A stretch of DNA of 64,000 bases from an uncultured virus (IMG/VR IMGVR_UViG_3300002834_000023) (Duplodnaviria; Heunggongvirae; Uroviricota; Caudoviricetes), in IMG/VR virus record IMGVR_UViG_3300002834_000023; one strand, written 5' to 3'. Position 1 is the first letter of the stretch. Every line of letters starts with the position of its first letter. The notes below the pieces were generated by a model. It was not told the origin of the DNA. It made no database searches and saw only the letters and a list, made by a program, of their open reading frames with translations. Shown one piece after another: positions 9,720 to 60,951 of the stretch. The position numbers and the translations under genes are program-made.

Positions 9720-9774
9720 CATCCAGTAAAACTTAAATAAAAAAACTTTTATTATCTTTGTAGAGAAATAATAA

Positions 9775-9999
9775 CGGCTTATAGTATAATGGTAGAACGC
9801 AATCAATATAATATTCTTGTCCGATGAAAAAAAGAGTGTTATAAACAGGGTTGAGGTGCGATTGTGAAAGAATGAACGAATATACGAAAACATGAATACA
9901 GATTGTGTATGGGGTTGCAAACCCAGAAAAATTATGATGTGTAAGTAAGATGGACAAGTAAAACAAGTAATTAAGGTTCAAATCCCGCTAGGCTGACAA
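9775..9999 (+). ncRNA. tRNA-ended RNA with about 150-nt insert
   Basis: Acceptor CGGCTTA/TAGGCTG, D-loop TAGTATAATGGTAGAAC, GGTTCAAATCC T-loop, ends ACAA; directly after promoter 9716. Confidence 0.55.
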
Positions 10000-10017
10000 A
10001 TTTAAAATCAATGTAAG

Positions 10018-11699: not shown

Positions 11700-11783
11700 A
11701 ATATAAATTGGGTAATTTTTATTACCTTTGTAACATATTATTAATCAATATCAATAAAATTATTAATCAATTAATTAAAAATT

Positions 11784-12647
11784 ATGGAAAAAGAATTTGC
11801 ATGTAGAATTGAAAACATTGGACCTGAAAGAGCAAAACAACTTTTATATGGATCAATGAAACAAGGTTGGATTAACCGAGATGAAGAAAAAAAACGTATT
11901 AAAATGTATACGGATGAAATGTTAAATGACAAATGGTCATTTACTGGCGAAAGTATTAGTCTTTCACCCACATTTAAACTTCTTAATGGTCATCACCGAT
12001 TAAAAGCGATTGAAATATCGGGAAAAACACTTCCAATGGTTGTTGTTTATAATGTACCAGAAGCCTCTTTTTACGATATAGATCAGGGATATGGAAGAAG
12101 TACAAAAGATAATCTTAAAATTGCTGGTGTTGAAAAATATGAAAAACACTCAAGTTCTTTAAATAAATACACATCATCCTCTAATAGTAAAACATTTATG
12201 AGTGAGACGGATAGTCGAAAACTTAATATTCCAAAAAGAGAATTATGTCACACATATCGAGATAATCAAGTTATTTTTGATTTAGTTCTTGCAAACTCCG
12301 AAAAATTTTATCGTAAATCAAAGTCAATAATGGCTCCAGCTGACATGAGGGGTCAAATGCTTACTCTAATACTTAAATATGGTTACAAAAAAGAAACGGT
12401 ATTTGATTTTTTTGAACAATTAATTACAGGATCTCATTACAGTAATGAAACCATTAGAAATTTTAGAAGAATAATTGAAAATAACAATTCAGTTAGAAAA
12501 CACACTAAATTAAAACCAGAATCAGTTAGAATAATGTTATACAACACATTCTTAGCATATATAAATGGTAAAGTATATAGTGAAAATAAATTAATTAAAA
12601 GTTCAAGTTTACCTATTCAAATGATACATGCTGATTATAGTTTTTAA
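11784..12647 (+). CDS. ParB/Srx-like domain protein, paralog of 10848..11699
   Basis: LLNGHHRLKAI; shared IDQ, IAG and KETVFDFF segments. Confidence 0.7.
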   Translation: MEKEFACRIENIGPERAKQLLYGSMKQGWINRDEEKKRIKMYTDEMLNDKWSFTGESISLSPTFKLLNGHHRLKAIEISGKTLPMVVVYNVPEASFYDIDQGYGRSTKDNLKIAGVEKYEKHSSSLNKYTSSSNSKTFMSETDSRKLNIPKRELCHTYRDNQVIFDLVLANSEKFYRKSKSIMAPADMRGQMLTLILKYGYKKETVFDFFEQLITGSHYSNETIRNFRRIIENNNSVRKHTKLKPESVRIMLYNTFLAYINGKVYSENKLIKSSSLPIQMIHADYSF

Positions 12648-20770: not shown

Positions 20771-21868
20771 ATGATACGAATTGTTCTCGGATGCTTATTC
20801 GGTGATGAAGGAAAGGGACAATGTGTTCACACATTATCCAATGAAGATACTTTGGTCATACGTTTCTCTGGTGGTCATCAATGCGGTCATACAGTAGTCA
20901 CTGATGATAATAAAGAACATGTATTTTCACAATTTGGTTCTGGCACTTTAAAAAGTGCTGGAACCTATATTAGTGAATATTGTACAATATATCCTAAAGG
21001 ATTAATCAGAGAATATAATGATCTGAAAACAAAAAGCAACTGGTTTATTTTGGATAAATATTTTGTTGATCCTCTCGCTATGATTACAACACCATATGAT
21101 ATTGCTTATAATAGAGTAATGGAAGGTATCAATAATCATGGTACTGTTGGAGTAGGATTTGGGGCAACAATAGACAGAAATGAAAAACATTTTACATTAT
21201 ATGCCTCTGATTTGTTATCTCCATTCATAACAGTAAACAAGATAAACCAAATCTCTAAATATTATAATGATAAAATAATATCATTACAACATATGGATGC
21301 AATGATTTCATATATGGACATTCTAAATGATGAACATGAAGGATTTGCCGATTCCATTAAATGGTTTAGAGAAAATATTCAAGTTAAACAACCCCCAATG
21401 GAAATATTTAAAGATATTATCTTTGAGGGTTCACAAGGAATTATGCTTGATCAAAAAATAGGATTCTTCCCACATGTTACAAGATGTAATACCACAGCGT
21501 TAAATGCTATGGAAATAATTAAAAATAACATACACTTTAACACACTTGAAGTATATTATGTAACCAGATGCTATATGACACGTCATGGCAACGGACCATT
21601 TCCAGAAGAAGAAATTGAACTGTTATCAGATCCATCACTCTCAAACCCAAAACATGACTGGCAAGGACAGTTAAAAACCTCACAAATGAACTTTGACATC
21701 CTTGAACATACCATAAAATGTAATGATGCAATTATGAAACGATATATAAATTATTATAAAAAACATTTAATCGTTACTTGTTGTGATCAAGTTGAAACAG
21801 TACCCTATGGATTTATGGATATGTCTGTTGATAATATCGAATATAAAAAATGTAGAAACTGGAACTAA
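20771..21868 (+). CDS. Adenylosuccinate synthetase-like protein (short PurA family)
   Basis: FGDEGKG, RFSGG.Q.GHT, FEGSQG..LD, YMTRHGNGPF. Confidence 0.82.
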   Translation: MIRIVLGCLFGDEGKGQCVHTLSNEDTLVIRFSGGHQCGHTVVTDDNKEHVFSQFGSGTLKSAGTYISEYCTIYPKGLIREYNDLKTKSNWFILDKYFVDPLAMITTPYDIAYNRVMEGINNHGTVGVGFGATIDRNEKHFTLYASDLLSPFITVNKINQISKYYNDKIISLQHMDAMISYMDILNDEHEGFADSIKWFRENIQVKQPPMEIFKDIIFEGSQGIMLDQKIGFFPHVTRCNTTALNAMEIIKNNIHFNTLEVYYVTRCYMTRHGNGPFPEEEIELLSDPSLSNPKHDWQGQLKTSQMNFDILEHTIKCNDAIMKRYINYYKKHLIVTCCDQVETVPYGFMDMSVDNIEYKKCRNWN

Positions 21869-28151: not shown

Positions 28152-28360
28152 AGTTGTAGTTTTTTAATTGTTATTATTGATACAAAGATATTAAAAATTA
28201 TGTAATAATAATTTTAACTGGATGTTAAAAAATGTTAAAATTAACATTTTCATATTATGTTAAAATAATTCATATTATATTATTTGTAAATATTTTAACA
28301 TATCATTGAACTGTTAAAATTGGTTAAGATATGTTAAAATTATATCTTAACCAATTTATA

Positions 28361-28540
28361 TTATTTTACATTGGTTCCGAACCTTTCATTAAAGGCTTTT
28401 ACAATTTCATCTCGTTTGTAGCTGTCCCAGTAGATTGATATTGCCGAACACCCAGGAAAGTGATACGCCATATCGCTTTTGGTTAGCCGTTTGCCAGCTG
28501 CAATACGATCCAGTGTCCATTTACTTAGTTGTGGTTTCAT
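28361..28540 (-). CDS. Hypothetical protein (59 aa, not in ORF track)
   Basis: MKPQLSKWTLDRI...; starts 1 nt after the upstream stop. Confidence 0.55.
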   Translation of the reverse strand: MKPQLSKWTLDRIAAGKRLTKSDMAYHFPGCSAISIYWDSYKRDEIVKAFNERFGTNVK

Positions 28541-28541
28541 A

Positions 28542-28781
28542 TTATTTGAAGTTTAAGCGGTTTTGTTCTCTGATCAGTTTGCGGAAGGCAGCCGTAACTT
28601 CAATGATAGTCACGTGTTCCATATAATACTTTGTAGCAATTTCCCCGCCCTTCAGGTTTACAGCCCGATAACCCCTGACATGGTTTTCGTTGGTATTATA
28701 CACCTCTATGTTAAATACGTGGTTCCCATTGTCAAGGTTTTTAACCTCTATTGTTCTACGTTTTGTTGTGATAGCTGCCAT
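28542..28781 (-). CDS. Hypothetical early protein
   Basis: ATG 28781 after promoter 28846. Confidence 0.7.
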   Translation of the reverse strand: MAAITTKRRTIEVKNLDNGNHVFNIEVYNTNENHVRGYRAVNLKGGEIATKYYMEHVTIIEVTAAFRKLIREQNRLNFK

Positions 28782-28858
28782 ATTGAAAAAGTTTTTAAGT
28801 TGTTTATAATGCAAAGGTACTAAAAATTGAATAATAATATTATCTCTGGATGTTAATT

Positions 28859-29047
28859 TTATCTACAGGACATATAAGCTCGCATCATTTCTTCATTAGT
28901 GGGTTTGTGGGAAGGATAGTTGGTTGATTTATATTCGTACCCTCTATTTGTATCATAATTACTTCTCCCATAATCACCATTACTCAACCCGTAATTTCCT
29001 GTTTTAGTCCCGATTGACCTTTCTCTTTTATAAATTTCACGAAACAT
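28859..29047 (-). CDS. Hypothetical early protein
   Basis: After promoter 29113. Confidence 0.65.
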   Translation of the reverse strand: MFREIYKRERSIGTKTGNYGLSNGDYGRSNYDTNRGYEYKSTNYPSHKPTNEEMMRAYMSCR

Positions 29048-29305
29048 AATTGTTTAATTTTAATTGATTATTATACTACAAAGATACAAAAACTTATCTA
29101 ATAATAATTTAACTGGATGTTAAAATTAGGGGTAGCTGAATATGTTAAAATATTTAGTTTTATATAATTTGTAATTATTTTAACATATCCGCCGTTGGCG
29201 GTTTCGCATTATGTTAAAATATGTTAAACAATATTTTTTAACATCCAGTATAATATAATGTAAATCATTTTTATTACTTTTGTATATAATTAAAACAACA
29301 GCAAT

Positions 29306-29512
29306 ATGAAAAAATTTAATGATAATCGGGAAAGTTTGGCAATATCATACGCAACGGATGCGACAGATAATAAACCTTCATCATACTCAACAGCTAAGCA
29401 GTGCTTTTTATCTGGGTACGAGGCTGGGGCAAATGAGTATTATAATAGGGGTTACAATGCAGCTCTGTTAGAACTCCAAAAATTAACATCCAGCATGTTA
29501 AAGGTTCAATAA
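29306..29512 (+). CDS. Hypothetical early protein
   Basis: After promoter 29238; reads through the next promoter motif. Confidence 0.65.
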   Translation: MKKFNDNRESLAISYATDATDNKPSSYSTAKQCFLSGYEAGANEYYNRGYNAALLELQKLTSSMLKVQ

Positions 29513-29558
29513 TTTTCAGTACTTTTGTATTCAACAACAACTAAAAAACAATAGAATT

Positions 29559-29912
29559 ATGGACGCACCATTTAGATTACAAACGATTAGAATTGAAACC
29601 AAGTATTGGTTTGACAGGACTTTTGGGAACAGTTACTACTCGTCCCAGGTAACATTGAATTGGGGTATGGATGACGAGGCTTCGTTTTGTGTTCCATTCC
29701 ATTATGGAAACCCTGACAGCGCAAGTTATGATATTATTGGGGCTTTATGCGCAAGGTACAATATCAAAAATTGGTCTTGGGCTAAACTTCATGAATTGGG
29801 AATTAAAAAGTACACTGGCCGACCAATAAAGGCTTTACAAAGGGATGTAAAAGCGTTTGGAAAAGAATACGAGGACATGACACTCTGGGAATACTGGGAA
29901 CAAAGAATATAA
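29559..29912 (+). CDS. Hypothetical early protein
   Basis: After promoter 29483. Confidence 0.75.
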   Translation: MDAPFRLQTIRIETKYWFDRTFGNSYYSSQVTLNWGMDDEASFCVPFHYGNPDSASYDIIGALCARYNIKNWSWAKLHELGIKKYTGRPIKALQRDVKAFGKEYEDMTLWEYWEQRI

Positions 29913-29945
29913 TAAGTAGGTAGCAGATAGAAAAGGTTTTTTGAA

Positions 29946-29976
29946 TATGGGTTGTTGTGAAACAATCCATATTTTG
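29946..29976 (+). terminator. Intrinsic terminator
   Basis: ATATGGGTTG...CAATCCATAT + T tract. Confidence 0.55.
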
Positions 29977-30084
29977 TTTATATATACTCAAATGAGTAGT
30001 CATACATTTTAACATCCAGCAAGAACCAAATAACGAATAATTTTGTATCTTTGTAGTATAATAATCAGTTAAAAATTAAGCAAT

Positions 30085-30435
30085 ATGAAAGTTTTGAATA
30101 TTATTGAGAGAGAGAATGATGTACAGCAAAATGTATCCAGCTATCCTATTCTTGAGGAAGCCAACGAAGCCAAAATTATTGAGGCTGTAAATGAGCATTT
30201 CAAACAGCTCATCAGGAACCGATTGGATGAGCAATCACAATGGGATAAGGATATTTACAATACAATCCTTGAGGACACAGGTTTTGAAAATACCGATGAG
30301 TTTTTGAACCAGTGTGTGGAAGAAGGGTACTTTGGCTATCCACATGACAATGATGTAGAATATCAGATCAGTTGGGGTACTGTGTTCAACCTTAATGATA
30401 CGGTACACTTGGATTACGTTTTTAACAAAAAATAA
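30085..30435 (+). CDS. Acidic hypothetical early protein
   Basis: After promoter 30009. Confidence 0.75.
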   Translation: MKVLNIIERENDVQQNVSSYPILEEANEAKIIEAVNEHFKQLIRNRLDEQSQWDKDIYNTILEDTGFENTDEFLNQCVEEGYFGYPHDNDVEYQISWGTVFNLNDTVHLDYVFNKK

Positions 30436-30453
30436 GTTGTTTTTAGTTGTTGG

Positions 30454-30492
30454 GGGTGTCCTGGTGATAGCGATCCAGTGACACCCTTTTTT
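30454..30492 (+). terminator. Intrinsic terminator
   Basis: GGGTGTC...GACACCC + T tract. Confidence 0.65.
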
Positions 30493-30602
30493 AACATTTC
30501 AGGATATGTTAAAATATGTATAAAAATTTTCAATAACATCCAGTTTAAAATAATTCAGATAATTTTTATTACATTTGTATAAACAATTAAAAACAAGTGA
30601 TT

Positions 30603-30845
30603 ATGACAGCTACTATTAACAGACTTTGGGATTTAGATATTAATATTGTGGGTTATGAAGGAACCCATTTGGAACGTCCGCAAAGCATTGCAGACCTTAG
30701 GAAGTGCAATAATGTTTTGGTTGACAAACGTGGTTCTTATGGTTACTATGATTGTATGATTGGTAATGCCTTGATCCAGGTTAAACAGGCAAAATACAGG
30801 CATCCTGCAAGCGGCTCAACAATGTTTTGTATTGAGGTTTTTTAA
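30603..30845 (+). CDS. Hypothetical early protein
   Basis: After promoter 30533; stop inside next motif. Confidence 0.7.
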   Translation: MTATINRLWDLDINIVGYEGTHLERPQSIADLRKCNNVLVDKRGSYGYYDCMIGNALIQVKQAKYRHPASGSTMFCIEVF

Positions 30846-30915
30846 CATCCAGAACATCAAATTTTATCTAATTTATAGTATCTTTGTAGTATAAACAACT
30901 AAAAAATATAACAAC

Positions 30916-31167
30916 ATGGAACTTTTTGAACTCACACCCAGAAACGGACGGAAATCATTTTATGGCAAAGCCCAGGTAGCTATCAACCAAGACGGAACTC
31001 AAACGTTGTTCTCCTATGGAACAGCAATCATGACACGTCAAACAGACGGCACTTATGTAAAGCATTGGGACGGATGGTCGGCAACAACAGGAAACCACAT
31101 TGCCTCCTTCAGTGGAGGTAATAAAAAGGAATACCAAATCATACCGTATGTAACCTATAAAAGATAA
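30916..31167 (+). CDS. Hypothetical early protein
   Basis: RKSFYGKA...LFSYGT...WSATT..H. Confidence 0.75.
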   Translation: MELFELTPRNGRKSFYGKAQVAINQDGTQTLFSYGTAIMTRQTDGTYVKHWDGWSATTGNHIASFSGGNKKEYQIIPYVTYKR

Positions 31168-31276
31168 GGCGTATGAAACGATTAAAATGGCTCTTTATAC
31201 GAGGCTCGCCCAAAAGATAAGGGATAATAATAAAATATTTAGAGAAATTAGACTAAGAAATTGTTAAATTTAACCG

Positions 31277-31332
31277 TACCCGAAACGCCCCTGATGCAAA
31301 ATTATAATCGAGGCTGTTTCGGGTACATTTTT
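31277..31332 (+). terminator. Intrinsic terminator
   Basis: GTACCCGAAAC...GTTTCGGGTAC + T tract. Confidence 0.55.
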
Positions 31333-31490
31333 ATTATTCCATATTATGTTAAAATAATTGGATTAAATATTTTATTAAATATTTTAACATATCCGCCAAT
31401 GCTGAAATTTTTAACATCCAGGTTGAATAATATTAGATAAGTTTTACTACTTTTGCAATATTCAACAACAACTTTTAAAACAATACAACT

Positions 31491-31784
31491 ATGGATTTTG
31501 AAAAGAAACATGCTGCCTGGTGTAAAAGAATAAATAAAAGAATCCCTGATTTGGCAAACAGGGTTTTCAATTTACGAGGTAAAGGGTACAAGGGTTGTGG
31601 ATTTCATTATGCTCTTGAAAAAGATTTAGGTAGTGTAATACGTTCTTTAAATAATTATGACAACCCTAATTCATTTGAATTTTCTATGATGTGTGTTACT
31701 GAAGTATTAGCAACCAGTTTATTTCAAAGGGTTGCCCAAATTGAAAAAGAACTTTTAACATCCAGCAAAAAAGAACTTATCTAA
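31491..31784 (+). CDS. Hypothetical early protein
   Basis: After promoter 31411. Confidence 0.7.
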   Translation: MDFEKKHAAWCKRINKRIPDLANRVFNLRGKGYKGCGFHYALEKDLGSVIRSLNNYDNPNSFEFSMMCVTEVLATSLFQRVAQIEKELLTSSKKELI

Positions 31785-31831
31785 TTTTTAATACCTTTGC
31801 ACTATCAATAACAACTAAAAAATTAAGCAAT

Positions 31832-32011
31832 ATGAAACGTAATGAAATTTTGAAAAGTATTAAAATGTTGGCTATGAGCCAGGGATCCTATGGACGTATG
31901 CTTCGCCAGATCAGTGAAATGGATGCTGATACATCTGAAAAATTTTGGGATATTATGGAAACACAAAACTTTGCCGATCCTGTTGATATGGTTTTATTTT
32001 TAGAGGGGTAA
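31832..32011 (+). CDS. Hypothetical protein (59 aa, not in ORF track)
   Basis: MKRNEIL...SQGSYGR; after promoter 31755. Confidence 0.65.
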   Translation: MKRNEILKSIKMLAMSQGSYGRMLRQISEMDADTSEKFWDIMETQNFADPVDMVLFLEG

Positions 32012-32019
32012 AAAAATAA

Positions 32020-32093
32020 GTGCTTGATCGTTTAGTGGTAGGACGCGGGGACAAGTCCCCCGTAACAGAGGTTCGATTCCTCTAATGGCACAA
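32020..32093 (+). tRNA. Pseudo-tRNA / tRNA-like RNA with non-canonical anticodon loop
   Basis: D-arm GTTTAGTGGTAGGAC, stem CGGGG/CCCCG, T-arm AGAGG-TTCGATT-CCTCT; loop ACAAGTC lacks U33/R37; acceptor stem only partly paired. Confidence 0.6.
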
Positions 32094-32475
32094 AGATATA
32101 AATTGTTTTTAATTGTTGTTAGATAGAGGGTTTTGGTCTTTTGCGTATTGCCTTACAAACGGCTCTGAAGTTGCAAAGAATAACCAACCCTCTATTTTTT
32201 TTATGTCCATTCATTTACCAATCATTTTAAAGCCTTTTAAGAGGCTTTTATTATTTTTGATACTCCGATATTACCATATAATTAAAATGCTTTATACAGG
32301 CTTAAAAATGATATTATGAATAATGATATTAAATTATTATAGAGGAATAATTTTTTAATGGATATTGGTTATGTTAAAATATGTATAAAAATAAATTTTA
32401 ACATCCAGTTTAAATTATATAAAAATAATTGTATTATCTTTGCAGTATAAACAACAACTTTTAATAACAACGATT

Positions 32476-32664
32476 ATGAACGAAAAAGGAAAATCAGTAA
32501 TGATGAAAATGTACTGGAATGAGTTAAGGCATCAGGGGTCTTTTGACTGTGGACTTAGGGACTTATTCTATTTGGCTGACAACAGCAACCGCAAAAAATT
32601 AATCCAAGCGTTCCCGAATTTTTTTGGAACGGACACAGCTGAATATTTTGGTATTAACATTTAA
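32476..32664 (+). CDS. Hypothetical early protein
   Basis: After promoter 32398. Confidence 0.65.
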   Translation: MNEKGKSVMMKMYWNELRHQGSFDCGLRDLFYLADNSNRKKLIQAFPNFFGTDTAEYFGINI

Positions 32665-32674
32665 ACATACAGAC

Positions 32675-33067
32675 ATGAACGAATATACACAACAAGCCGA
32701 AAACTTTGCCTCCAAGTGGGGTGTAACCTTAAAAATCAAAGGTAGTGAATACAAGCCAATGTTTGGCGAAAAAAGTAGCTGTTACGTTTTTAAATGCGTA
32801 CTGAAACGGAACCACAAACAATATACTTTTGACTTTTGGCAAAGTATATACAATGGCAGCAAAGAACCCGAACTGTATGACATTTTGGCAGCCATGACCA
32901 AATATGACCCTACTTCTTTTGAAGATTTTTGTGGGGATTACGGATATGACCAGGATAGCCGACAGGCTTACAAAACCTACCTGGCAGTGGAACGTGAATA
33001 CGCAGCAATGGAAAGATTGTTTTATGATGATGAACAGTGTTGGGTGGATTTTCAGGAAATCAATTAA
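32675..33067 (+). CDS. Hypothetical early protein
   Basis: FEDFCGDYGYD.DSR.A pattern. Confidence 0.75.
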   Translation: MNEYTQQAENFASKWGVTLKIKGSEYKPMFGEKSSCYVFKCVLKRNHKQYTFDFWQSIYNGSKEPELYDILAAMTKYDPTSFEDFCGDYGYDQDSRQAYKTYLAVEREYAAMERLFYDDEQCWVDFQEIN

Positions 33068-33124
33068 TATACAATACAATTCATACGTTTACTTCGTCAT
33101 CCTTACCGATGACATTTTTTAGAG

Positions 33125-33156
33125 AACAGCTTGCTTGTGAAAGTAGGCTGTTTTTG
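33125..33156 (+). terminator. Intrinsic terminator
   Basis: AACAGCTTGCTT-GTGA-AAGTAGGCTGTT + T tract. Confidence 0.6.
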
Positions 33157-33332
33157 CATTATATACTCAAATGAGTAGTGGACATGGTTATGTTAAAATA
33201 TCATTCAAATTTTATATATTAAATATTTTAACATATCAGCCGATTCCAAAAATTTTAACATCCAGACTAATAAAACTTAAATGATTTTTAATATCTTTGT
33301 ATTATATTTAAACAACTCAAAAAACAACAACA

Positions 33333-33551
33333 ATGAGAAATTCTACTGCATTAAAAGACTACAAATTGAATGTTAATTTTCAACGTATGGGAACATGGAA
33401 GGGATTTGAAATGTACCTTCACTACCCTCAATATAATGGGTTCATAATTGAATGGTACGGGATCCAACAAAGATACATGGGATATTCATTGAGAACAGCT
33501 AAAAGTCTGTTCAAAAATTACATAAGAAAAACCTACCCTCAATTTGCATAA
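33333..33551 (+). CDS. Hypothetical early protein
   Basis: After promoter 33255. Confidence 0.7.
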   Translation: MRNSTALKDYKLNVNFQRMGTWKGFEMYLHYPQYNGFIIEWYGIQQRYMGYSLRTAKSLFKNYIRKTYPQFA

Positions 33552-33563
33552 AACTATACAACT

Positions 33564-33743
33564 ATGATTAATTACACGTTTTTTGATGACAATGACATAG
33601 AGGTAGGGAACATAGATCTGCCCAATGGATATTACAAAGAATTTATCCACTATTATGCCAATGAGGTTGGAGCCTCTTATTATAGAATGGATAGCCCCAA
33701 AGTATTTAAGGAAATTAAACGTTACATAAACTTGAACATGTAA
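33564..33743 (+). CDS. Hypothetical protein (59 aa, not in ORF track)
   Basis: MINYTFFDD...; ends 1 nt before motif 33745. Confidence 0.55.
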   Translation: MINYTFFDDNDIEVGNIDLPNGYYKEFIHYYANEVGASYYRMDSPKVFKEIKRYINLNM

Positions 33744-33818
33744 TTTAACATCCAGGTTGGTAAATCTTATCTAATTTTAATTATCTTTGTCGTATAAACA
33801 ATTAAAAAACAAACTACA

Positions 33819-34121
33819 ATGGCAGTAAAACAGAATTATAGAGCAAGCGGTTTAAACCAAACATGGTTAGCAGAAACACGCAAATATTTGAAAAAACTTG
33901 ATAAAAACCTTGAAAATCTTGGTTGTACCAAAATTGAATTTGGAATTAATTATAACTATTGGTCAGGGTTTTTCACAGCCCCAAATGGTCAGATATGGTA
34001 TATGTGCGGAGGCGAAAATACAGATGCTTGCAATTACTATTATCGCACAGCAGCTCACTACAGGGACTTCACAGGGGGTAGAAATCAATTTGACAATAAC
34101 ATCATAGGTGCAATCCGTTAA
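33819..34121 (+). CDS. Hypothetical early protein
   Basis: YRTA..YRDFTGGRNQF. Confidence 0.75.
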   Translation: MAVKQNYRASGLNQTWLAETRKYLKKLDKNLENLGCTKIEFGINYNYWSGFFTAPNGQIWYMCGGENTDACNYYYRTAAHYRDFTGGRNQFDNNIIGAIR

Positions 34122-34413
34122 TACCCACAATCATGGAAAAAGTTAATAAATTTTGTGCCGATTACATATTGCCAATTATCCTTCTATATTGTGTTGTTGC
34201 ACCACCAGTCATGGTACTGATATTGTTATTCCAATGCTTTTATAAATAAATCTTACATAGTTTCTGAATGGGATATAACATCATACCCCATTTAGATTCT
34301 ATTCAAATGATATGTTAAAATATGTTTAAATAATTTTATTAACATCCAGCTTTAAATTATGTAAAATATATTTTATATCTTTGTAATACAATAATCAATT
34401 AATAACAACAACT

Positions 34414-34656
34414 ATGACAATCAAAGAATTTAAAGCAAACGCAACCAAAACAAAGTACAACACAAACAATGCCTGGGGTTTTGGTGGAGGCATTGGAAAT
34501 GACTTTACAATGACCTTTGTAACATTGGGAACATTTAAAGCAAGGTTCGGCAAAGCCTGTTATCGCCACTTACACCCAAACAGCTATTCACGCTTTTGGA
34601 TCAATGACAACGAAGTCACCAAAAAGGAATTTGAAACACAGTTAAATAAAGCATAA
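34414..34656 (+). CDS. Hypothetical early protein
   Basis: After promoter 34339. Confidence 0.7.
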   Translation: MTIKEFKANATKTKYNTNNAWGFGGGIGNDFTMTFVTLGTFKARFGKACYRHLHPNSYSRFWINDNEVTKKEFETQLNKA

Positions 34657-34658
34657 TC

Positions 34659-34973
34659 ATGGAAAAAGACACAAACATCACAAAGGTAGTGTTCCGTAAA
34701 TTTAAAGGAACCAACGATTGTACAAAGGGCGAAATTATTGCCCTGTTCCCCGAAGAGCTTGAAATTGGGTTCACAATTTTATCTTATATGCACCTGGGAC
34801 AACACGCAAACGCAGATTATAATTGGATTATCCAAAACAGCAAACCCGCAAATGAAATTGAATACGCAGCCTTAAAAAGCGAATTGGATGACATGGGGTA
34901 TAATCTTAAAATCTATAAAAAATTACGTCCCGACTTTTCAAATAGAACGTACTTTACAAATATGGTAAAATAA
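34659..34973 (+). CDS. Hypothetical early protein
   Basis: VVFRKF..GEIIALFP..SYMHLGQH..EL..MGY. Confidence 0.75.
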   Translation: MEKDTNITKVVFRKFKGTNDCTKGEIIALFPEELEIGFTILSYMHLGQHANADYNWIIQNSKPANEIEYAALKSELDDMGYNLKIYKKLRPDFSNRTYFTNMVK

Positions 34974-35339
34974 AATTTTTACCCACTACTGTAAACCTTT
35001 TAGTATGGGCAAAAAAATAAAATGGTTGAAATATGGATACGTCTGTATTTCAGCCTTTTGCTTTTGTTATGTCCTTGAATATCTTTTAAAACTTATTTAA
35101 AAATCATTCTCCGTATTGTTGTGGACTTATGTGCATGTAGCGACGGCCCAATATTTCAAATGATATTCATTTAAGATTAAAATGATATGCCAAATACCTT
35201 TTAAAACAGTGTTACCATAGTATTGCATTACAAATTATCGCTCGTATGGTCTTAACTGTTTTTAAAAACCTTCTCAATCCCCTCGTCCCAAATGCCTGGG
35301 TTTATACGATTTTTACAAAAATAAATATACGGATAAAAA

Positions 35340-35700
35340 TTTTTTGAAACAAATTGTTATGTTAAAATATGTAAAAATAATTAAAATCAAAATTTTTTAA
35401 CATATATTTTTAATCCATGCAACTATGTTAAAATATTTAATAAAACATTTTCTAATAATATTTTAACATATTCGGCGACCACAGAATTTAACATTTTTTA
35501 ACACTTAGCAATATGTTAAAATATGTTTAAAAAAAAATTTTAACAATTCAAAAATTTGTTAAAAATTATTAAAATATCATTAGAAACATTTATGTTAAAA
35601 TATGTAAAAAAAGTTTAAAATGAAATTATGAAGAAATGTTAATGAATGTTAAAATATGTAAAATGATTTTTTAACAAATTTTATGTAATTTTAAAAAGTT
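35340..35700. repeat. Dense cluster of about 13 ATGTTAA/TTAACA sites in a 1.1-kb non-coding gap
   Basis: Copies at about 35359,35397,35425,35463,35488,35498,35513,35540,35556,35593,35636,35646,35671. Confidence 0.75.
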
Positions 35701-36134
35701 TGCACACACAACACAACACACCCACAAAAATATCTAAATATCAGTCCATTATAATTTTTCCCTATATTTTACCCCAAAACACCTTCAAAATATTATACAT
35801 TATATTTATATGATATTCATAAAAATCTAAGTATCAGGAAAATAGGTAATATCTTAACTTATAATGCCATGAAACACCTTCAAAATTTTTATAAAGATTT
35901 GTTAAAAACATCTTTACAAACTTATTTTAATATCCCTATCAAAATAGTATAAAGTGTTTGCAGGGCAATAGGATTGATTTACGGTTATTTTTCCATGAAA
36001 GTGGTATCGGTATAGGTTTAAAAATAAAAGTGGCTTAAAACGGATTATTTGCGCTCACAGGATTTTAACATCCAGTAGAATGACAGTTAAAAATTTTTTT
36101 GTACCTTTGCAGTATAATTTAAAACAACAGCAAT

Positions 36135-36329
36135 ATGAATAAAATTTACAAATTACATATTACGCCAAAACGAAAGATTGCCAGGTACAAGGAATTGAAG
36201 GGATTTAGTTCTTTGAGTGAGGCATATCATTTTGGTAATGATTTATGTATAAAATACCCAAATGATGAATTTATTATGATTAGTCAGGAGGGTAAAGCGT
36301 ATAAATTCAACAGGGTTATGGTATTGTAA
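36135..36329 (+). CDS. Hypothetical early protein
   Basis: After promoter 36065. Confidence 0.65.
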   Translation: MNKIYKLHITPKRKIARYKELKGFSSLSEAYHFGNDLCIKYPNDEFIMISQEGKAYKFNRVMVL

Positions 36330-36344
36330 ACAACACAAAACAAT

Positions 36345-39128: not shown

Positions 39129-39241
39129 CCCATAGATATGTTAAAATATGTATAAATTTATTTTTTAACATCCAGTTTAAATATTATCTAATATATTTTT
39201 GTATCTTTGTAATATGTTAAACAAATTAAAACAACAAAATT

Positions 39242-39415
39242 ATGGATGATTTATATGTAGTTGCAAACATTATAGGTGGTTTTAGACAAAGACCGTTATT
39301 TACAGGTACTTTGGTTGAATGTGAGGCTTTTATGGAAAATAATCCAGGTCTTGGATATGGGAATGACAATACCAATATTTACTTGGATGATGAGTGGGAG
39401 GTTGATTATCTTTAA
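39242..39415 (+). CDS. Hypothetical protein (57 aa)
   Basis: After promoter 39165. Confidence 0.55.
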   Translation: MDDLYVVANIIGGFRQRPLFTGTLVECEAFMENNPGLGYGNDNTNIYLDDEWEVDYL

Positions 39416-39439
39416 TAATTAATTTTAAAATCATTTATT

Positions 39440-39706
39440 ATGTGGACAAAGGGAATGTTTAGGACATTGGCTATCTTATTTACTTTCGTGGCTGCAATTA
39501 TTATCTTTTTTGGGGTATTTGCTATTATTGAATTATGGTTTGATTTTAACTACCCTGAACCCGATATGAGTTATGATGATGTATTGTGTAGTGGGAGGTA
39601 TTTAATGGCTTGGATTGTTATGGTAGGCATATCGGTTTGTTATTTATTTCGTCCTTCAATTAGAAAAATATGGGGACCAATATTAGGTAGAATAAAGGAA
39701 AGTTAA
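39440..39706 (+). CDS. Membrane protein
   Basis: Two TM helices. Confidence 0.65.
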   Translation: MWTKGMFRTLAILFTFVAAIIIFFGVFAIIELWFDFNYPEPDMSYDDVLCSGRYLMAWIVMVGISVCYLFRPSIRKIWGPILGRIKES

Positions 39707-39714
39707 AAAATTAT

Positions 39715-39984
39715 ATGATGAAGGATTGTAGAAAATATTACATTCAGCTTGGTAATTTGTACATGAATGAGTTTTGCGGTTGGAGTGCTAATTTTGATGA
39801 TGCAGTATTAAGTTTTCAAATTGATGCCGAACAAACTTGTAAATCTTATAATAGGGGGTTTAAAAAGGGCAAAGATACTTTGGCTATTGCAATTCCTTTT
39901 GAGGGTACTGAAAAAATTCCTTCTTATATAGATGATGAAATATTAACAGTTGGAAAAGCCAAATTAATTTTAACATCCAGATAA
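39715..39984 (+). CDS. Hypothetical protein
   Basis: 89-aa ORF ending within motif 39970. Confidence 0.65.
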   Translation: MMKDCRKYYIQLGNLYMNEFCGWSANFDDAVLSFQIDAEQTCKSYNRGFKKGKDTLAIAIPFEGTEKIPSYIDDEILTVGKAKLILTSR

Positions 39985-40045
39985 TTAAAACTTGGATAAG
40001 ATTTTGTATCTTTGTAGTATAGAACAACAATTAAATATTACGGAT

Positions 40046-40471
40046 ATGGAAATCAGGACAAACATTCAGGCAGGTAAAGAGAGTGCATTTATTTTGGCAG
40101 GTAAAGCAATACTGACCATTACCAACAGTGCAAATGGCAATCATTTTACCTACAAAGTAAAACGTATCAGGAAAGATTCGGATGCTTATTATGTATCGGT
40201 TGCACACAATTATGACGAATACCATTATACAGCCGTATTGATGAAAATAAAGGGGGTATGGGAGCTTCGGAACGCCAAAAACCCAAAAATCTTATTATCA
40301 CCCTCTTGCAAGGCTTTCAAATATTTGGTTGATAATTATATTAACAGTTACAAGCCACATGCAAATTTGATAATACAGCATGAAGGCAGGTGTGGAAGGT
40401 GTGGACGACCACTTACGGATCCGACAAGCATATCAATCGGATTAGGACCAGAGTGCAGAAGTAAATTTTAA
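40046..40471 (+). CDS. DUF6011-like zinc-finger protein
   Basis: CGRCGRPLTDPTSISIGLGPEC. Confidence 0.75.
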   Translation: MEIRTNIQAGKESAFILAGKAILTITNSANGNHFTYKVKRIRKDSDAYYVSVAHNYDEYHYTAVLMKIKGVWELRNAKNPKILLSPSCKAFKYLVDNYINSYKPHANLIIQHEGRCGRCGRPLTDPTSISIGLGPECRSKF

Positions 40472-40484
40472 ATAAAAAAAAAAT

Positions 40485-40640
40485 ATGGAAAATATATTAG
40501 ATGCCGTTTCTCAAAATATTGCTAGAATTAAGAATGAGATGAAAACCGCTACTGGTGTTGATTATCAAGATCTATTGGAAGAATTGAATGATGAGAGAGA
40601 TTATATAAAATTTCTCACAGGAAATTATTTTGGGGAATAG
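40485..40640 (+). CDS. Hypothetical protein (51 aa)
   Basis: MENILDAV... Confidence 0.5.
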   Translation: MENILDAVSQNIARIKNEMKTATGVDYQDLLEELNDERDYIKFLTGNYFGE

Positions 40641-40721
40641 GGTTTTAACATCCAGTATATGTACTCAAATGAGTAATTTAGTATCTTTGCATTATTATTA
40701 ACAATTCAATTAAAAACAGTT

Positions 40722-41093
40722 ATGGGTTACGGTTCAAGAAAATATAAAAACTATTATCAGGAGGTTGAAAGAGGCATATTCAACTGTATGCAAGGTAGGA
40801 AAGACATTGTTTTTTCGGTAAAAAGCACTGTGGTTTATCATATCAATGACAGGAATAAGGCTACTAAAATAGGTTATTACATTGATGATAATCTTATCAA
40901 AAAGGAAAAAGGGGGTAATCTTATTCTCAATGGTAGCATTTACAATTATATTGAAAATTGTCCTTTAAATTTTAGGGATGATGATTTGAAATTGGGTAAA
41001 CCTGGTTATGTTGAAGAAACAATTATTGAATATTTTGGATATGCTGAAATTGTTAGTTTTGACGGTGGCATTACTTTGGAATGGGTTATTTAA
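40722..41093 (+). CDS. Hypothetical early protein
   Basis: Promoter 40645; stop in motif 41090. Confidence 0.75.
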   Translation: MGYGSRKYKNYYQEVERGIFNCMQGRKDIVFSVKSTVVYHINDRNKATKIGYYIDDNLIKKEKGGNLILNGSIYNYIENCPLNFRDDDLKLGKPGYVEETIIEYFGYAEIVSFDGGITLEWVI

Positions 41094-41169
41094 CATCCAG
41101 GTAAATAAAACCTATATGAATTTTAGTATCTTTGTATTGAAGTTAAACAATTTAAAATAAAAAAGGATT

Positions 41170-41334
41170 ATGAATTGGGGAAGCATTTTTGCATGGTTTT
41201 TATTTAGCATTTTTGTTGGTGTATTAGGCTTGGGATTTTATTCTTTAATTCCGTTGGGGGCATATATATCAATATGTTTAATAGGTGGGTTTATTATTCG
41301 GCTGCTTATTGAAATTTTAAATAAATTAAAATAG
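41170..41334 (+). CDS. Small membrane protein (54 aa)
   Basis: After promoter 41090; hydrophobic. Confidence 0.55.
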   Translation: MNWGSIFAWFLFSIFVGVLGLGFYSLIPLGAYISICLIGGFIIRLLIEILNKLK

Positions 41335-41336
41335 TT

Positions 41337-41594
41337 ATGTTCCAAAAAGAAAGTAAAGCATTTGATTTACCTGAAATATTTGCAATATCCAATATAGAAG
41401 GTTTTTTACCGAACTATGATGCAAGTAAAAACAATAAACGTAGTGGCAAGATACGTGTGTTTCATGGTATTGTAAAATTGGATATACTACCATTTGAGAG
41501 TTTTAAAATGGCTTTATTCAAAAAGGGATATAAGGTTAGTAAAAGTCCTACCCATCGGAGTGATTTATTGGGAGTAAAAATCAGAAAATTTTAA
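41337..41594 (+). CDS. Hypothetical protein
   Basis: Stop in motif 41591. Confidence 0.65.
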   Translation: MFQKESKAFDLPEIFAISNIEGFLPNYDASKNNKRSGKIRVFHGIVKLDILPFESFKMALFKKGYKVSKSPTHRSDLLGVKIRKF

Positions 41595-41668
41595 CATCCA
41601 GTTCAAGTGATTTAAAAATATTTATTGTACTTTTGTAATATAATTAATCAAATAAAAAATTTACAGTT

Positions 41669-41953
41669 ATGTCGAAAAAGTTTTGTGCGAATGTAGAGTA
41701 TGTGTATGGCAAAGACCGTTTGGATATTAACCTTTTGGTTAGCGGTGTTATGATTGCCACAAGTAACAAGACAAACAACTCACCAGGGATGAATTTCCTA
41801 TCGGAAAAAGCCATTGACAAGTTTGTTGAGGGCATTTGTAATCAAGACCCCATTAAACAAGTAATGGTTGAATATTCAAGTGAGGACAGTGGGCATGGTT
41901 ACAAGTATTTACCAATTATTTCAAAAAACAGGGTTGTTCGGTGTAGATTTTAA
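41669..41953 (+). CDS. Hypothetical early protein
   Basis: Stop in motif 41950. Confidence 0.7.
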   Translation: MSKKFCANVEYVYGKDRLDINLLVSGVMIATSNKTNNSPGMNFLSEKAIDKFVEGICNQDPIKQVMVEYSSEDSGHGYKYLPIISKNRVVRCRF

Positions 41954-41999
41954 CATCCAGGTTTTGTAAGTTAAAAATAAAAATAGTAATTTTGTAGAG

Positions 42000-42563
42000 A
42001 TATATGACTATCCAAATGTGAGATGTTGATTGTACTTGCATTTTGTACCGAACTACAAATTAAAAGTCTTTTGTAGCTGATAGAATAGATAGGTATCTTT
42101 TTTAGAATCTGTTGTACGTTACAGGAACGTATATGTTTACACTTTGCATCTTGTATTCTGACAAAGGAATAAATAGTGTTGTCAGGGCGAAGGTTAAAAC
42201 AGGGTTAAAGTGCGTGACTTACTAATAATGGATAGTCTTTAGGGTACGGAACCCCTCTTGGAATATTGTGAAGTACGGATTTATCCGTTTGGGCAAGTGA
42301 ATAAATTAAAAAGTTTAATCCCATGCCGTACTGACAAGCGAAACGGATGTAGTTATCAAAGTAGGGTACGTCCATATCTGAAATTTTAATGAAAAAATAA
42401 TAGTACGCTTAATAATAGAAAGAAAATTTGTAAATATTGAGCAAAGGTTTTGTATCTGATAAAGTTTGATTTAGTCTTACATAATCACTACAATTTGGGA
42501 CGTTACAAGTTTAGTTAATCCAATTTTCCGTAACATCTATGTGAAAATTGGATTGATTTTTTT
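42000..42563 (+). ncRNA. Large structured non-coding RNA candidate (about 550 nt)
   Basis: Own promoter (41950), no ORF, GACTATCCA/TGGATAGTC long-range helix, interleaved helices, terminator at 42516-42563. Confidence 0.6.
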
Positions 42564-42667
42564 AACATTTCCAATTATGTTAAAATATGTATAAATAATT
42601 TATTTAACATCCAGTATATTAAATATTATGTAAGTTTTAATATTTTTGTATTAAAGTTATAAAAAAA

Positions 42668-43183
42668 ATGAATACATTAGAGCAACAGCTAAGAATTGAA
42701 ACACAGGATTTGAAAGAATTGTTCCTACAAAAAATGGAACAGTCTGCAAGGAATGAGTTTGAGTATGCCAAAAAGGTTATGGAACGCTCTGTAGCTGATT
42801 GGTGTAAAGTATTCAATTTGGAACCCCGATTGGTTTATGAGGGCAAATATGAATATCCGTATGGTTTTTACAATACACGAAATTCCAAAATATTGTATGA
42901 TACAACAAAAAAGTATCGTTTAATGTATTGGGATGGGTTGGATAAATTAATTAAAACTACCTTACATAAGGCAAATTTGCATTATGAAACATCATTACAA
43001 AAATTGGTTACACGTCTTATTGAAAAAGGATTAACAGACAATAATTTTGAAATAGTTAGTAAAAAGTTGGGTGTCAATTTTGAATTGGTTATCAAGTATG
43101 ATAACAATAAAACCGTCCGTTGTTGGACGATTATAGCCGAAGGCGATATACAACGAGCTCACTACCGATATTTGATTAAATAA
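42668..43183 (+). CDS. Hypothetical early protein
   Basis: TIIAEGDIQRAHYRYLIK C-terminus; after promoter 42604. Confidence 0.8.
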   Translation: MNTLEQQLRIETQDLKELFLQKMEQSARNEFEYAKKVMERSVADWCKVFNLEPRLVYEGKYEYPYGFYNTRNSKILYDTTKKYRLMYWDGLDKLIKTTLHKANLHYETSLQKLVTRLIEKGLTDNNFEIVSKKLGVNFELVIKYDNNKTVRCWTIIAEGDIQRAHYRYLIK

Positions 43184-44572: not shown

Positions 44573-44758
44573 TATTCTGTTTTTTCATATTGCTTTTTTT
44601 CTCACCCATGCAAGTAGAATTATCCTGCTTGTGTGGGTGATCCGTTTTATGTATGTACTCAAATGAGTATAATGGTATGTTAAAATATGTATAATTTTTA
44701 ATTTTAACATCCAGTTTATATAATATTAGATAAATTTTTGTACTTTTGTATTGTAAGA

Positions 44759-44921
44759 GAGTGAAGACAGTGTAATGTTTATGGGAATGTGAAATACCCC
44801 TCGTGGCTTTGTGCGTAAATTGGTCGAGGGTAAATAGAATAAAGCACTGTAGCCATTAATAGTGGAAATTATTAAAGGTAGCGTTGGTTAATCGGGGGTT
44901 CGACTCCCCCTTCACTTACAA
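44759..44921 (+). ncRNA. tRNA-like RNA (acceptor stem + T-arm, no D or anticodon arm, about 163 nt)
   Basis: GAGTGAA/TTCACTT acceptor stem, perfect GGGGG-TTCGACT-CCCCC T-arm, ends ACAA; directly after promoter 44704. Confidence 0.7.
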
Positions 44922-44952
44922 ATATAATAAACAATTAAAAACAGTTAAAGTT

Positions 44953-46577: not shown

Positions 46578-46639
46578 ATTTTAACATCCAGAATTTAGAA
46601 AGTAAAAAATAAAGTAGTATCTTTGTATTAGATTTAATT

Positions 46640-46901
46640 GTTGAACCGAGAGTGGTTCCGTTAGAGAATGGTATTTTGCCGGCACTAACCCGATAGAACA
46701 GGACCGTTGAGGTCCGAATGGGTACGAAAACGAACATCCGCTGGCGTATATATTAATGTAGGTTTGATATGGCACGACAGCCCCCGATTGCCGATATGCG
46801 GGGCATACTGACCGCCCGAACATAGTGCGCACAAATTTTTTATGCGGTCGCCGAACATCACCTAACACCCCTGACCATTCAAAGACGGGACCACTTTTTT
46901 T
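46640..46901 (+). ncRNA. GC-rich structured non-coding RNA candidate (about 260 nt)
   Basis: Own promoter (46581); 14-bp closing helix 46648-61/46885-98, further helices, ends in T tract. Confidence 0.7.
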
Positions 46902-46965
46902 ATAAAAAAGGTTTCCCCCATACCTTTTCAAAAATGGGGGTGGTGTGTGGGTATTATTATTCTTG

Positions 46966-46992
46966 GGTTGAATTTACATTCAACCTTTTTTT
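46966..46992 (+). terminator. Intrinsic terminator
   Basis: GGTTGAAT...ATTCAACC + T tract. Confidence 0.6.
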
Positions 46993-57623: not shown

Positions 57624-57875
57624 TACAATCAGGAAAATTTAAAAAGCGACTAAAAGCATTGGAAGAAAGAACGGTAAAGGAAAATCAAATAAAAGTATTT
57701 AAACATAAAATACAACAAATAGAAAAAATTGAAGAAGAAATTCCAGAAGATATAATTCAAGTTAATGGTATTGAGATATACATAATTTAATGTGTTTAAT
57801 TAAACTTAAACACATTTTTTAACATCCAGTTTTAGAAACTTAAATATATTTTTTGTATATTTGCATTGAATTAAT

Positions 57876-57980
57876 AAGGGAAGATATTCGGTATATGGGG
57901 AATCACAGCAAGCCATATATTCCAAACTGACAAGTGGGCATCAAGGCTGATGAGGGTATGTAGAATATCTCCTTTTTTTA
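57876..57980 (+). ncRNA. Small structured RNA or leader candidate (about 100 nt)
   Basis: After promoter 57819; AGATATTC/GAATATCT closing helix, TATATGG/CCATATA and CATCA/TGATG hairpins, T tract. Confidence 0.45.
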
Positions 57981-58013
57981 TTTAATATTTTTTAATAATA
58001 ATATAAATCTTAT

Positions 58014-59809: not shown

Positions 59810-60071
59810 TATGACAATGATACATTATCCTGTTAAACAAAAGACATATAAGTATGCAAATACTAAATGTGATAAATTTTCTCATCTTGATGAAAGTGGT
59901 AACATGATTTATATACCAAAGAAAAAGTTTAACAGTGATAAAGAAGCCATTGAAGAAGCAAAACGAATAAATGCGCTTCCAAAAACAATTCACAAGGTTG
60001 TCGCATATAAATGTAGAACATGTCATTTATGGCATGTTGGTAGAACTAAAAAAGAATTAAAACATGAATGA
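59793..60071 (+). CDS. Hypothetical protein (Zn-binding)
   Basis: AYKCRTCHLWHVG. Confidence 0.65.
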   Translation: MICLNNMTMIHYPVKQKTYKYANTKCDKFSHLDESGNMIYIPKKKFNSDKEAIEEAKRINALPKTIHKVVAYKCRTCHLWHVGRTKKELKHE

Positions 60072-60951
60072 AGATAAAGAATTTAAAACATTAGGTGAAA
60101 GAATGAACTACTATCGAAGTATGGGTGAAATGAAAATCACGCCCAAAAGTTATGTATTAGCGATGCTGGATGGTAGGTCATTCTCGAAGCGTTGGAAAAA
60201 CAAATTGGATAAGCCATTTGATGATGGTTTTATATCTGATATGAATGAAACAGCAAAATATCTGTGTGAAAATATTGCTGGTTGCAGACTTGCATTTGTT
60301 CAAAGTGATGAAATATCCTTGTTCCTTTGTGATTATGAGAATGAGGAAACCCAGCCATGGTTCGATTATCGAATGACTAAAATGTTATCTTTATCAGCAG
60401 CAATGGCAACTGGTAAGTATAATCAATTAAGGTTAGTAAGAGAATTACAAGACACTATAAATGATAACCAGATATTTGTTGATGAGGAAGATGAACCTTA
60501 TAAACAAATCAGAAATGGGAAAGAAATATTAATACCACCTGGTAAAGTTTATACAATTTATGACCAAATAAGGGATTTCAAATTATCTGAATTTGATTCT
60601 AAATTTTGGTCTGTACCTGAAAGAAATGATGCTGTTGCATGGTTTATATATCGTCAAAATGATTGTATTCGTAACAGTGTACTTCAATCTGGTTACACTT
60701 ATTTCTCACACAAAGAACTGATGAATAAGAAAACTGATGAGATAAAAGATAAACTATTTTTTGATAAAGATGTTAATTGGAATGAATATTCTGATGGAAA
60801 AAAATATGGTCGGGTTATTTATAAAGTGATGACATCTGCAAATAGAAGTATATGGATTATCCACAATGCACCTGTATTTAAAGGTGAAGATGGATCAAAC
60901 TGGTTGAAAGAGTTCATAACAGAAATTCCAAAAACACAGTTGTCAAATTGA
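60064..60951 (+). CDS. tRNA(His) guanylyltransferase Thg1-like protein (3'-5' polymerase)
   Basis: LDGRSFSK, QSDEISL, FDSK, RQNDCIRNS, KYG. Confidence 0.88.
   Translation: MNEDKEFKTLGERMNYYRSMGEMKITPKSYVLAMLDGRSFSKRWKNKLDKPFDDGFISDMNETAKYLCENIAGCRLAFVQSDEISLFLCDYENEETQPWFDYRMTKMLSLSAAMATGKYNQLRLVRELQDTINDNQIFVDEEDEPYKQIRNGKEILIPPGKVYTIYDQIRDFKLSEFDSKFWSVPERNDAVAWFIYRQNDCIRNSVLQSGYTYFSHKELMNKKTDEIKDKLFFDKDVNWNEYSDGKKYGRVIYKVMTSANRSIWIIHNAPVFKGEDGSNWLKEFITEIPKTQLSN

Follow-up and report, generated by a model that had tools for sequence, protein, structure and literature searches.

A promoter-to-terminator unit without an open reading frame in a huge termite-gut phage, tentatively read as an orphan untranslated RNA with only local structure

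Positions 41948-42563 of the window, the 64-kb stretch of DNA analysed here, hold a promoter-to-terminator unit without an ORF, hereafter the cassette. The window has a GC content of 25-35% and is tightly packed with small ORFs on the plus strand; it also encodes a CCA-adding enzyme, a Thg1-like enzyme, a methyltransferase and ParB-like proteins. The best tblastn matches of the CCA-adding enzyme were found in a 735-kb uncultured phage (43% identity) and in the Lak megaphages of Prevotella. The region is present in two public runs from two studies, both of DNA and both labelled termite gut metagenome, and the cassette shows zero differences between the window and the contigs of these two runs. 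The DNA that hosts the unit is that of a huge termite-gut phage, AT-rich and with promoters of the Bacteroidota type.

Other features of the window concern nucleotide and tRNA metabolism and its general organization. An adenylosuccinate-synthetase-like gene (20771-21868) has as its best PHROG phrog_1211, annotated as a 2-amino-adenine pathway (PurZ-like) enzyme, while the Thg1-like tRNA-His guanylyltransferase and the CCA-adding enzyme map to 60064-60951 and 340-1749, respectively; together, the three genes point to a base-modification and tRNA-repair capacity. Several palindromes are strongly avoided window-wide (observed/expected: CCGG 3/34, CGCG 1/12.1, GGCC 6/41.8 and CTAG 9/49.1), and GATC is found at 0.52 of expectation. 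An ORF-less tract of 1.37 kb (34974-36344), with the kilobase 35001-36000 at 23% GC, contains ATGTTAAAAT/ATTTTAACAT palindromes in pairs, coincides with the single local turn of the cumulative GC skew (~35-36 kb), and may be a control region or origin. A short palindrome, (A/G)TACTCAAATGAGTA, was found at or near module boundaries (37077, 40659, 44653, 50500, 52597 and 58882; families D17 and D20).

Almost every small gene of the window is preceded by a copy of one promoter family, TTTTAACATCCAG-N26/27-TAnnTTTGTA, which is present in 47 copies (43 on the plus strand and 4 on the minus strand; e.g. 37438, 39972 and 44706), and whose TAnnTTTG part we take to be the Bacteroidota -7 promoter element. 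In 38 of the 43 copies on the plus strand, the promoter is followed by an A-rich leader and then by an ATG-initiated ORF of at least 40 aa, which begins 60-80 nt from the box. The five copies without such an ORF are those at 9718, 41952 (the cassette), 44706, 46583 and 57821. The family would drive dozens of tiny orphan genes as well as several ORF-less units. Used as a search pattern, the promoter recovers G001, a 275-kb IMG/VR phage that has only 3 of 120 ORFs in common with the window; fragments of up to 8 kb, from one metagenome, of a closer relative, which share 18 ORFs at 31-73% identity; and contigs in a MAG titled Mycoplasmataceae (G002). At least two of the G002 contigs (L109-L113 and L119) carry the phage promoter; the binning probably placed AT-rich contigs of a huge phage together with a low-GC bacterium.

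The features of the cassette and its downstream boundary are as follows:

41948-41996, plus strand: cassette promoter, with the box TTTTAACATCCAG at 41948-41960 and the -7 element TAATTTTG at 41987-41994
41998-42563, plus strand: predicted untranslated transcript of ~560 nt, its start near 42000 deduced from the -7 box and its end placed at the terminator U-run
42006-42014 and 42229-42237, plus strand: closing complement GACTATCCA / TGGATAGTC, 9 nt, present in the sequence
42006-42237, plus strand: domain 1 of the preliminary description, plausible but unproven
42032, 42045, 42114, 42244, 42273, 42328, 42366 and 42403 (spanning 42032-42406): eight GTAC sites
42053-42076, plus strand: local hairpin CUACAAA-N10-UUUGUAG (CTACAAA at 42053, TTTGTAG at 42070), mean pair probability 0.94
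42115-42131, plus strand: local hairpin UACGUU-N5-AACGUA (TACGTT at 42115, AACGTA at 42126), mean pair probability 0.93
42158-42185, plus strand: local hairpin CUGACAA-N14-UUGUCAG (CTGACAA at 42158, TTGTCAG at 42179), mean pair probability 0.90
42273-42278 and 42326-42331, plus strand: first interleaved pair, GTACGG / CCGTAC, pair probability 0.19
42283-42290 and 42341-42348, plus strand: second interleaved pair, ATCCGTTT / AAACGGAT, pair probability 0.001
42513-42563, plus strand: intrinsic terminator, a perfect 12-bp stem (42517-42528/42543-42554) followed by U7 (42557-42563)
42577-42655, plus strand: boundary box ATGTTAAAATATGTATAAA (repeat family D9, 8 copies), then the promoter of the next unit (box from 42603)

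The cassette promoter overlaps the stop codon of an upstream gene of 94 aa (41669-41953). Both of its boxes are intact and its spacing is the usual one of the family (39 nt from AACATCCAG to TTTG), the spacer being divergent, and it ranks 41 of 47 in a leave-one-out weight matrix. The start of the transcribed region differs from that of the coding units, since the leader contains G and is not A-rich. At the other end, the terminator hairpin has a predicted energy of -19.6 kcal/mol (z -6.11) and a pair probability of 0.998, and none of 200 shuffles was as stable. The boundary box and promoter beyond it belong to the next unit, whose gene lies at 42668-43183; a stable hairpin followed by a U-run was also found at four of the seven other ATGTTAAAATATGTATAAA-box boundaries tested. 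The cassette is the final module in a block of six promoters (39167-42563), and its GC content (30%) is like that of its surroundings, with a low-complexity 3' quarter (42381-42515) at 24% GC.

The promoter box also shares sequence with other repeats of the window. The TTTTAACAT part of the box is the reverse complement of ATGTTAAAA, which recurs in the eight copies of the boundary box ATGTTAAAATATGTATAAA and in the palindromic pairs ATGTTAAAAT...ATTTTAACAT at 28255-35471, and this suggests that one DNA-binding factor could recognize half-sites in promoters and full sites in operators.

Under translation table 11 the longest plus-strand ORFs in the unit are of 43 and 37 aa, both with TTG starts, and the longest minus-strand ORF is of 56 aa. 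Alternative codes (TAG read as Q, or table 4) opened nothing longer than 59 aa, and table 4 added nothing new. In all three plus frames the cassette has negative codon log-odds, between -0.17 and -0.24 per codon, versus +0.08 to +0.27 in six neighbouring small genes. The 56-aa minus-strand ORF has a codon score of 0.09, which ranks 7 of 34 among obviously spurious antisense ORFs; it carries no promoter copy, and only a self-match was found for it among 5.8 billion proteins. None of five small ORFs of the cassette matched PHROGs or Pfam at E values up to 1. A search for a decayed paralogue, in which G001 and the remainder of the window were compared with the cassette by six-frame tblastn and by blastn, returned a best E value of 0.22, and this candidate explanation was rejected. 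An ATG within the family's range is present at 42024, 72 nt away from the box, and opens only 17 codons (42024-42077), for the hydrophobic peptide MLIVLAFCTELQIKSLL. Among window ORFs of 100 aa or more, the stop is TAA (56), TAG (5) or TGA (5); because all three codons serve as stops, recoding that might lengthen this ORF is not indicated. The cassette thus lacks the three marks of the coding modules, namely the A-rich leader, an ATG ORF of at least 40 aa at 60-80 nt and a positive codon score, and judged from its sequence the unit appears not to be coding. A preliminary description of the stretch had placed around this ORF-less region a promoter of its own at ~41950 and a terminator at 42516-42563. 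All three points were confirmed, the promoter more strongly than had been claimed, as it is 1 of 47 copies of a family.

No known RNA family was found to fit the unit. Rfam gave no matches at the gathering score over the window; at E values up to 10, positions 41500-43000 yielded only mir-7615 (18.9 bits versus a gathering score of 90), with neither ROOL nor GOLLD, and of the three weak matches obtained in the window at E values up to 1 none is inside the cassette. ARAGORN made no call in the cassette. A 'tRNA-Val' at 42232-42589 with a 268-nt intron, obtained with introns allowed and a threshold lowered to 90%, was regarded as spurious. An antisense role towards phage mRNA leaders was rejected, the mean duplex energy over 38 leaders being -14.45 versus -14.81 +/- 0.73 in 40 shuffles, as were longer repeated motifs or tandem repeats of the ToxI/CRISPR type, none of which exceeded the shuffle level. 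In the accessible portions of the literature on termite-gut jumbo phages and on noncoding or structured RNAs of huge phages, no such unit was found.

The preliminary description had proposed a large structured RNA in the size class of ROOL and GOLLD, without signatures of RNase P, tmRNA or introns, built from a ~230-nt domain with long-range helices and an H-type pseudoknot. All of the sequence strings that it named are present where it placed them, and the absence of those signatures agrees with the Rfam results, which on the other hand lend nothing to the ROOL/GOLLD comparison. Perfect inverted k-mers in 41998-42515 were as frequent as in 500 dinucleotide shuffles of the same segment (observed versus shuffle mean: 1 and 1.12 for k=9, 4 and 4.15 for k=8, 15 and 15.35 for k=7, 59 and 56.7 for k=6), and the longest inverted repeat reached at least 9 nt in 287 of the 500 shuffles. 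The fold z-score is -2.69 on the plus strand and -0.77 on the minus strand with the terminator included; without the terminator it is -1.67, versus a mean of -1.79 in coding controls (nine 518-nt segments of the same phage; sd 1.62, range +0.21 to -4.96). Of the ~230-nt domain, the closing complement and the inner pairs stand; the closing helix has a probability of 0.25 and costs 1.7 kcal/mol relative to the optimum when forced, the domain has a z-score of -2.07, and its helices occur at chance frequency. The interleaved complements of the pseudoknot likewise exist, without support beyond chance: the region 42238-42400 has a fold z-score of -0.05, and the two stems, whose low probabilities (listed above) come from a nested ensemble, compete with a local ACGGA/TCCGT hairpin that is preferred in the minimum-free-energy fold. 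The cassette has 6 local hairpins of 6 bp or more, versus 2.36 +/- 1.56 in shuffles (p ~0.03), and at least 6 such hairpins were also found in 8 of 48 control segments of the phage.

With a stability no better than that of phage coding sequence and helices at chance frequency, the claim of a large structured RNA with long-range helices was not upheld. Folding is predicted to be local only, comprising the three 6-7-bp hairpins and the terminator, with no compact multi-domain fold; long-range helices and a pseudoknot of the kind described are what any AT-rich sequence of 520 nt and such composition would yield.

A feature that does exceed background is a cluster of GTAC sites. At 15.4/kb (8 in 518 nt), versus 2.1/kb over the window as a whole, they are denser in the cassette than in any other 500-nt stretch, although the enrichment was noticed after the fact and at least 1 of 500 dinucleotide shuffles reaches eight GTAC. 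Among these sites the extended form GTACG is found five times on the plus strand and once on the minus strand, and the five copies compare with 0.12 expected (Poisson p 2e-7). An equally extreme 5-mer was found in 1 of 481 other 518-nt segments, within a minus-strand gene. Window-wide, GTAC is not avoided (137 observed versus 137.4 expected). The sites have no longer shared consensus around them and no regular spacing, and no GTACG clusters were found in G001 and related fragments.

Searches for homologues of the cassette were negative in every set covered. No homologue was found among GenBank phages by blastn, and an exact 20-mer of the cassette recovered nothing in IMG/VR; the cassette body matched nothing in G001 (BLAST and nhmmer), in 47 metagenome loci carrying the promoter or in G002, the MAG that holds related-phage contigs. 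Flanking proteins used as synteny anchors led to no relative with the cassette, both flanking genes being absent from G001, G002 and the fragments of the closer relative, and neither did the CCA-adding enzyme used as an anchor. One candidate relative, L001, was rejected, as it matches only residues 76-94 of the 94-aa query (63% identity, E 3e-5) and has no promoter box. Among 14 neighbour genes, Pfam gave one match above its cut-off, a DUF, and the window's hits to related fragments are dispersed, for the most part not in the same order. As these relatives are distant or fragmentary, the absence of the cassette from them is weak evidence.

Five further ORF-less stretches were found in the window, four of them on the same promoter as the cassette and one ahead of a boundary box:

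9763-10005: promoter unit, tRNA-like at its 5' and 3' ends (7-bp terminal stem, GGTTCAAATCC T-loop), with an insert of ~170 nt between them
32012-32345: stretch that precedes a boundary box, with a tRNA match below threshold at 32030-32083 (25.8 bits versus a gathering score of 29)
44752-44932: ORF-less promoter unit, closed by AGUGAAG/CUUCACU, with a T-arm-like GGGGGUUCGACUCCCCC hairpin at its end
46632-46992: ORF-less unit with promoter and terminator, lying in the kilobase of highest GC content in the window (0.366), with a predicted closing helix of ~20 bp and a z-score of -2.75
57858-57990: ORF-less promoter unit of ~110 nt, ending in a U-run

The four promoter units resemble the cassette in the identical promoter family and in the lack of both an A-rich leader and an ORF, and 46632-46992 is, like the cassette, the last module before a terminator and a ATGTTAAAATATGTATAAA boundary. 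They differ from it in being shorter (~110-360 nt) and GC-richer or tRNA-like, and two of them are closed by terminal helices. The tRNA-like unit at 9763-10005, on which ARAGORN and Rfam made no call, is conserved and syntenic in the related fragment L076 (~540-640, minus strand), between homologues of its window neighbours. Its terminal stem CGGCUUA/UAGGCUG is replaced there by CGGUUGG/CCAACUG, so that four positions are changed and all seven pairs are kept, according to an alignment read by eye; such pairing-preserving changes in a relative set this unit apart from the cassette. The stretch 32012-32345 also has partial matches in related fragments (L066 and L067). Because 9763-10005 was found in L076, RNA genes on this promoter can be traced between relatives; the cassette, unlike both of these stretches, was not. 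The unit 44752-44932 has a weak match to a tmRNA 3' end (18.1 bits, Rfam). Rfam had no match for 46632-46992, and neither G001 nor the metagenome fragments yielded a homologue of it; on the folding predictions, this unit is a better structured-RNA candidate than the cassette. In G001, the same promoter heads a cluster that resembles tRNA genes, in a sequence read by eye.

The promoter, the terminator, the absence of coding signal and the motif enrichment are direct observations, and from them we tentatively favour, at somewhat less than even confidence, the reading of the cassette as the source of an orphan transcript that is probably untranslated, has local structure only and would act as RNA. 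The family promoter at 41948-41996 would fire, transcription would begin near 42000, and an untranslated RNA of ~560 nt would be made, ending at the hairpin and U7 of the terminator (42517-42563); read-through transcripts from the upstream promoters of the block would also end with the cassette sequence. An RNA product is favoured because the unit lacks the A-rich leader and ATG that accompany 38 of the 43 plus-strand promoter copies, and because four other ORF-less units share the promoter, one of them a conserved tRNA-like RNA. That the product works as RNA is a weaker suggestion. Against this reading stand the lack of any homologue found, the ordinary folding stability, the low rank of the promoter and the AT-rich, low-complexity 3' quarter.

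These same observations feed the main rival of the orphan-RNA reading, a functionless module, either a decayed gene cassette or foreign DNA trapped between a promoter and the block terminator, which may be transcribed to no effect. It is rather unlikely in our judgement, yet it would explain why the unit is an orphan in every search made, with flanking genes that are orphans too and absent from G001 and G002, why its promoter matches the family matrix poorly and why no structural signal rises above the genome background, and modules are visibly reshuffled between relatives. However, a decayed gene is difficult to reconcile with the absence of residual coding signal in any frame and of protein similarity, and with an A-rich leader and start codon that are wholly missing, not merely mutated; both promoter boxes, their exact spacing and the perfect 12-bp terminator stem are all intact, and GTACG enrichment would be unexpected in decayed sequence. 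The compact ROOL/GOLLD-class RNA of the preliminary description, with its 230-nt domain and an H-type pseudoknot at 42273-42348, is improbable. The phage setting and a size that fits the class speak for it, as do a closing helix within 1.7 kcal/mol of the optimum, the z-score of the domain and the number of local hairpins over shuffles; nevertheless, one in six of the phage control segments (8/48) has as many hairpins, the whole-unit z-score is that of coding controls, the pseudoknot region scores near zero with stems of low probability, Rfam is silent at E values up to 10, helices occur at chance frequency, the GC content is like that of the surroundings, and no homologues were found, hence no covariation.

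Two further readings would assign the function elsewhere. A micropeptide unit, whose product would be the 17-codon ORF at 42024 or one of the frames of 30-43 aa further on, gains from an ATG inside the family's 60-80 nt range and from a hydrophobic peptide like small membrane peptides. It is nonetheless decidedly improbable: an ATG in range followed by at least 17 open codons is expected by chance at ~0.1 for this composition (a rough estimate), the leader is not A-rich, unlike those of coding units, codon scores are negative with no recoding that would extend the ORF, and ~490 nt of untranslated RNA would follow it. More improbable still is a DNA-level element, in which the GTAC cluster, adjoined by the AT-rich 42381-42515, would form an array bound by a DNA-binding protein, such as a replication origin for which the promoter's transcript would serve as primer, or a partition or packaging site. 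GTAC is palindromic and reaches its highest density of the 64-kb window here, an AT-rich tract follows the cluster, and ParB-like genes are found in the window at 10848-12647. Yet the cumulative GC skew rises steadily at the cassette and turns only at ~35-36 kb, in the 1.37-kb AT-rich, ORF-less palindromic tract; moreover, the GTAC sites lack a longer consensus or regular spacing, and G001 has no comparable cluster.

Within the orphan-RNA reading, the GUAC(G) array could be a set of protein recognition sites and the RNA a sponge or decoy. This guess is made because the array is the only feature above background, and its partner is purely hypothetical. In its specific form, in which an early-expressed decoy would soak up with its eight GUAC(G) sites a sequence-specific host RNA-binding protein or endoribonuclease, for example a defence nuclease, it is speculation and very unlikely to be correct.

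Among known systems, ROOL, GOLLD, CsrB-type sponges and origin primers offer analogies only. ROOL and GOLLD are large non-coding RNAs of a size class comparable with the cassette. Like them, the cassette would be an ORF-less RNA of several hundred nt that belongs to a phage or prophage, and tRNA-like RNAs and tRNA-processing enzymes are encoded in the same genome; unlike them, it has neither a covariance-model match nor evidence of a complex conserved fold, its sequence is an orphan, and its GC content and folding energy are ordinary for its genome. CsrB and RsmZ are protein-sequestering sponge RNAs, and the predicted transcript would share with them a length of a few hundred nt, an untranslated, terminator-ended form and many copies of a short motif. 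The GUAC(G) motif in its eight copies is, however, known from primary sequence and not as a loop motif, and no partner protein is encoded near the cassette, so the resemblance is functional speculation. ColE1 RNA II and the T4 ori transcripts are untranslated primer transcripts at replication origins; the cassette is similar in its predicted promoter-driven, ORF-less transcript of ~550 nt adjoining an AT-rich tract, but there is no skew turn at the cassette and the unit stops at a strong terminator, not at an origin.

The main value of these results is a negative one, in that only transcript data together with comparative data would justify counting the unit as a large structured RNA. Should the RNA be made and have a function, the RNAs of huge phages, of which little is known, would gain an orphan long non-coding member; and if the decoy guess were true, the RNA would represent RNA-based counter-defence with a new motif class in huge phages of the Bacteroidota type.
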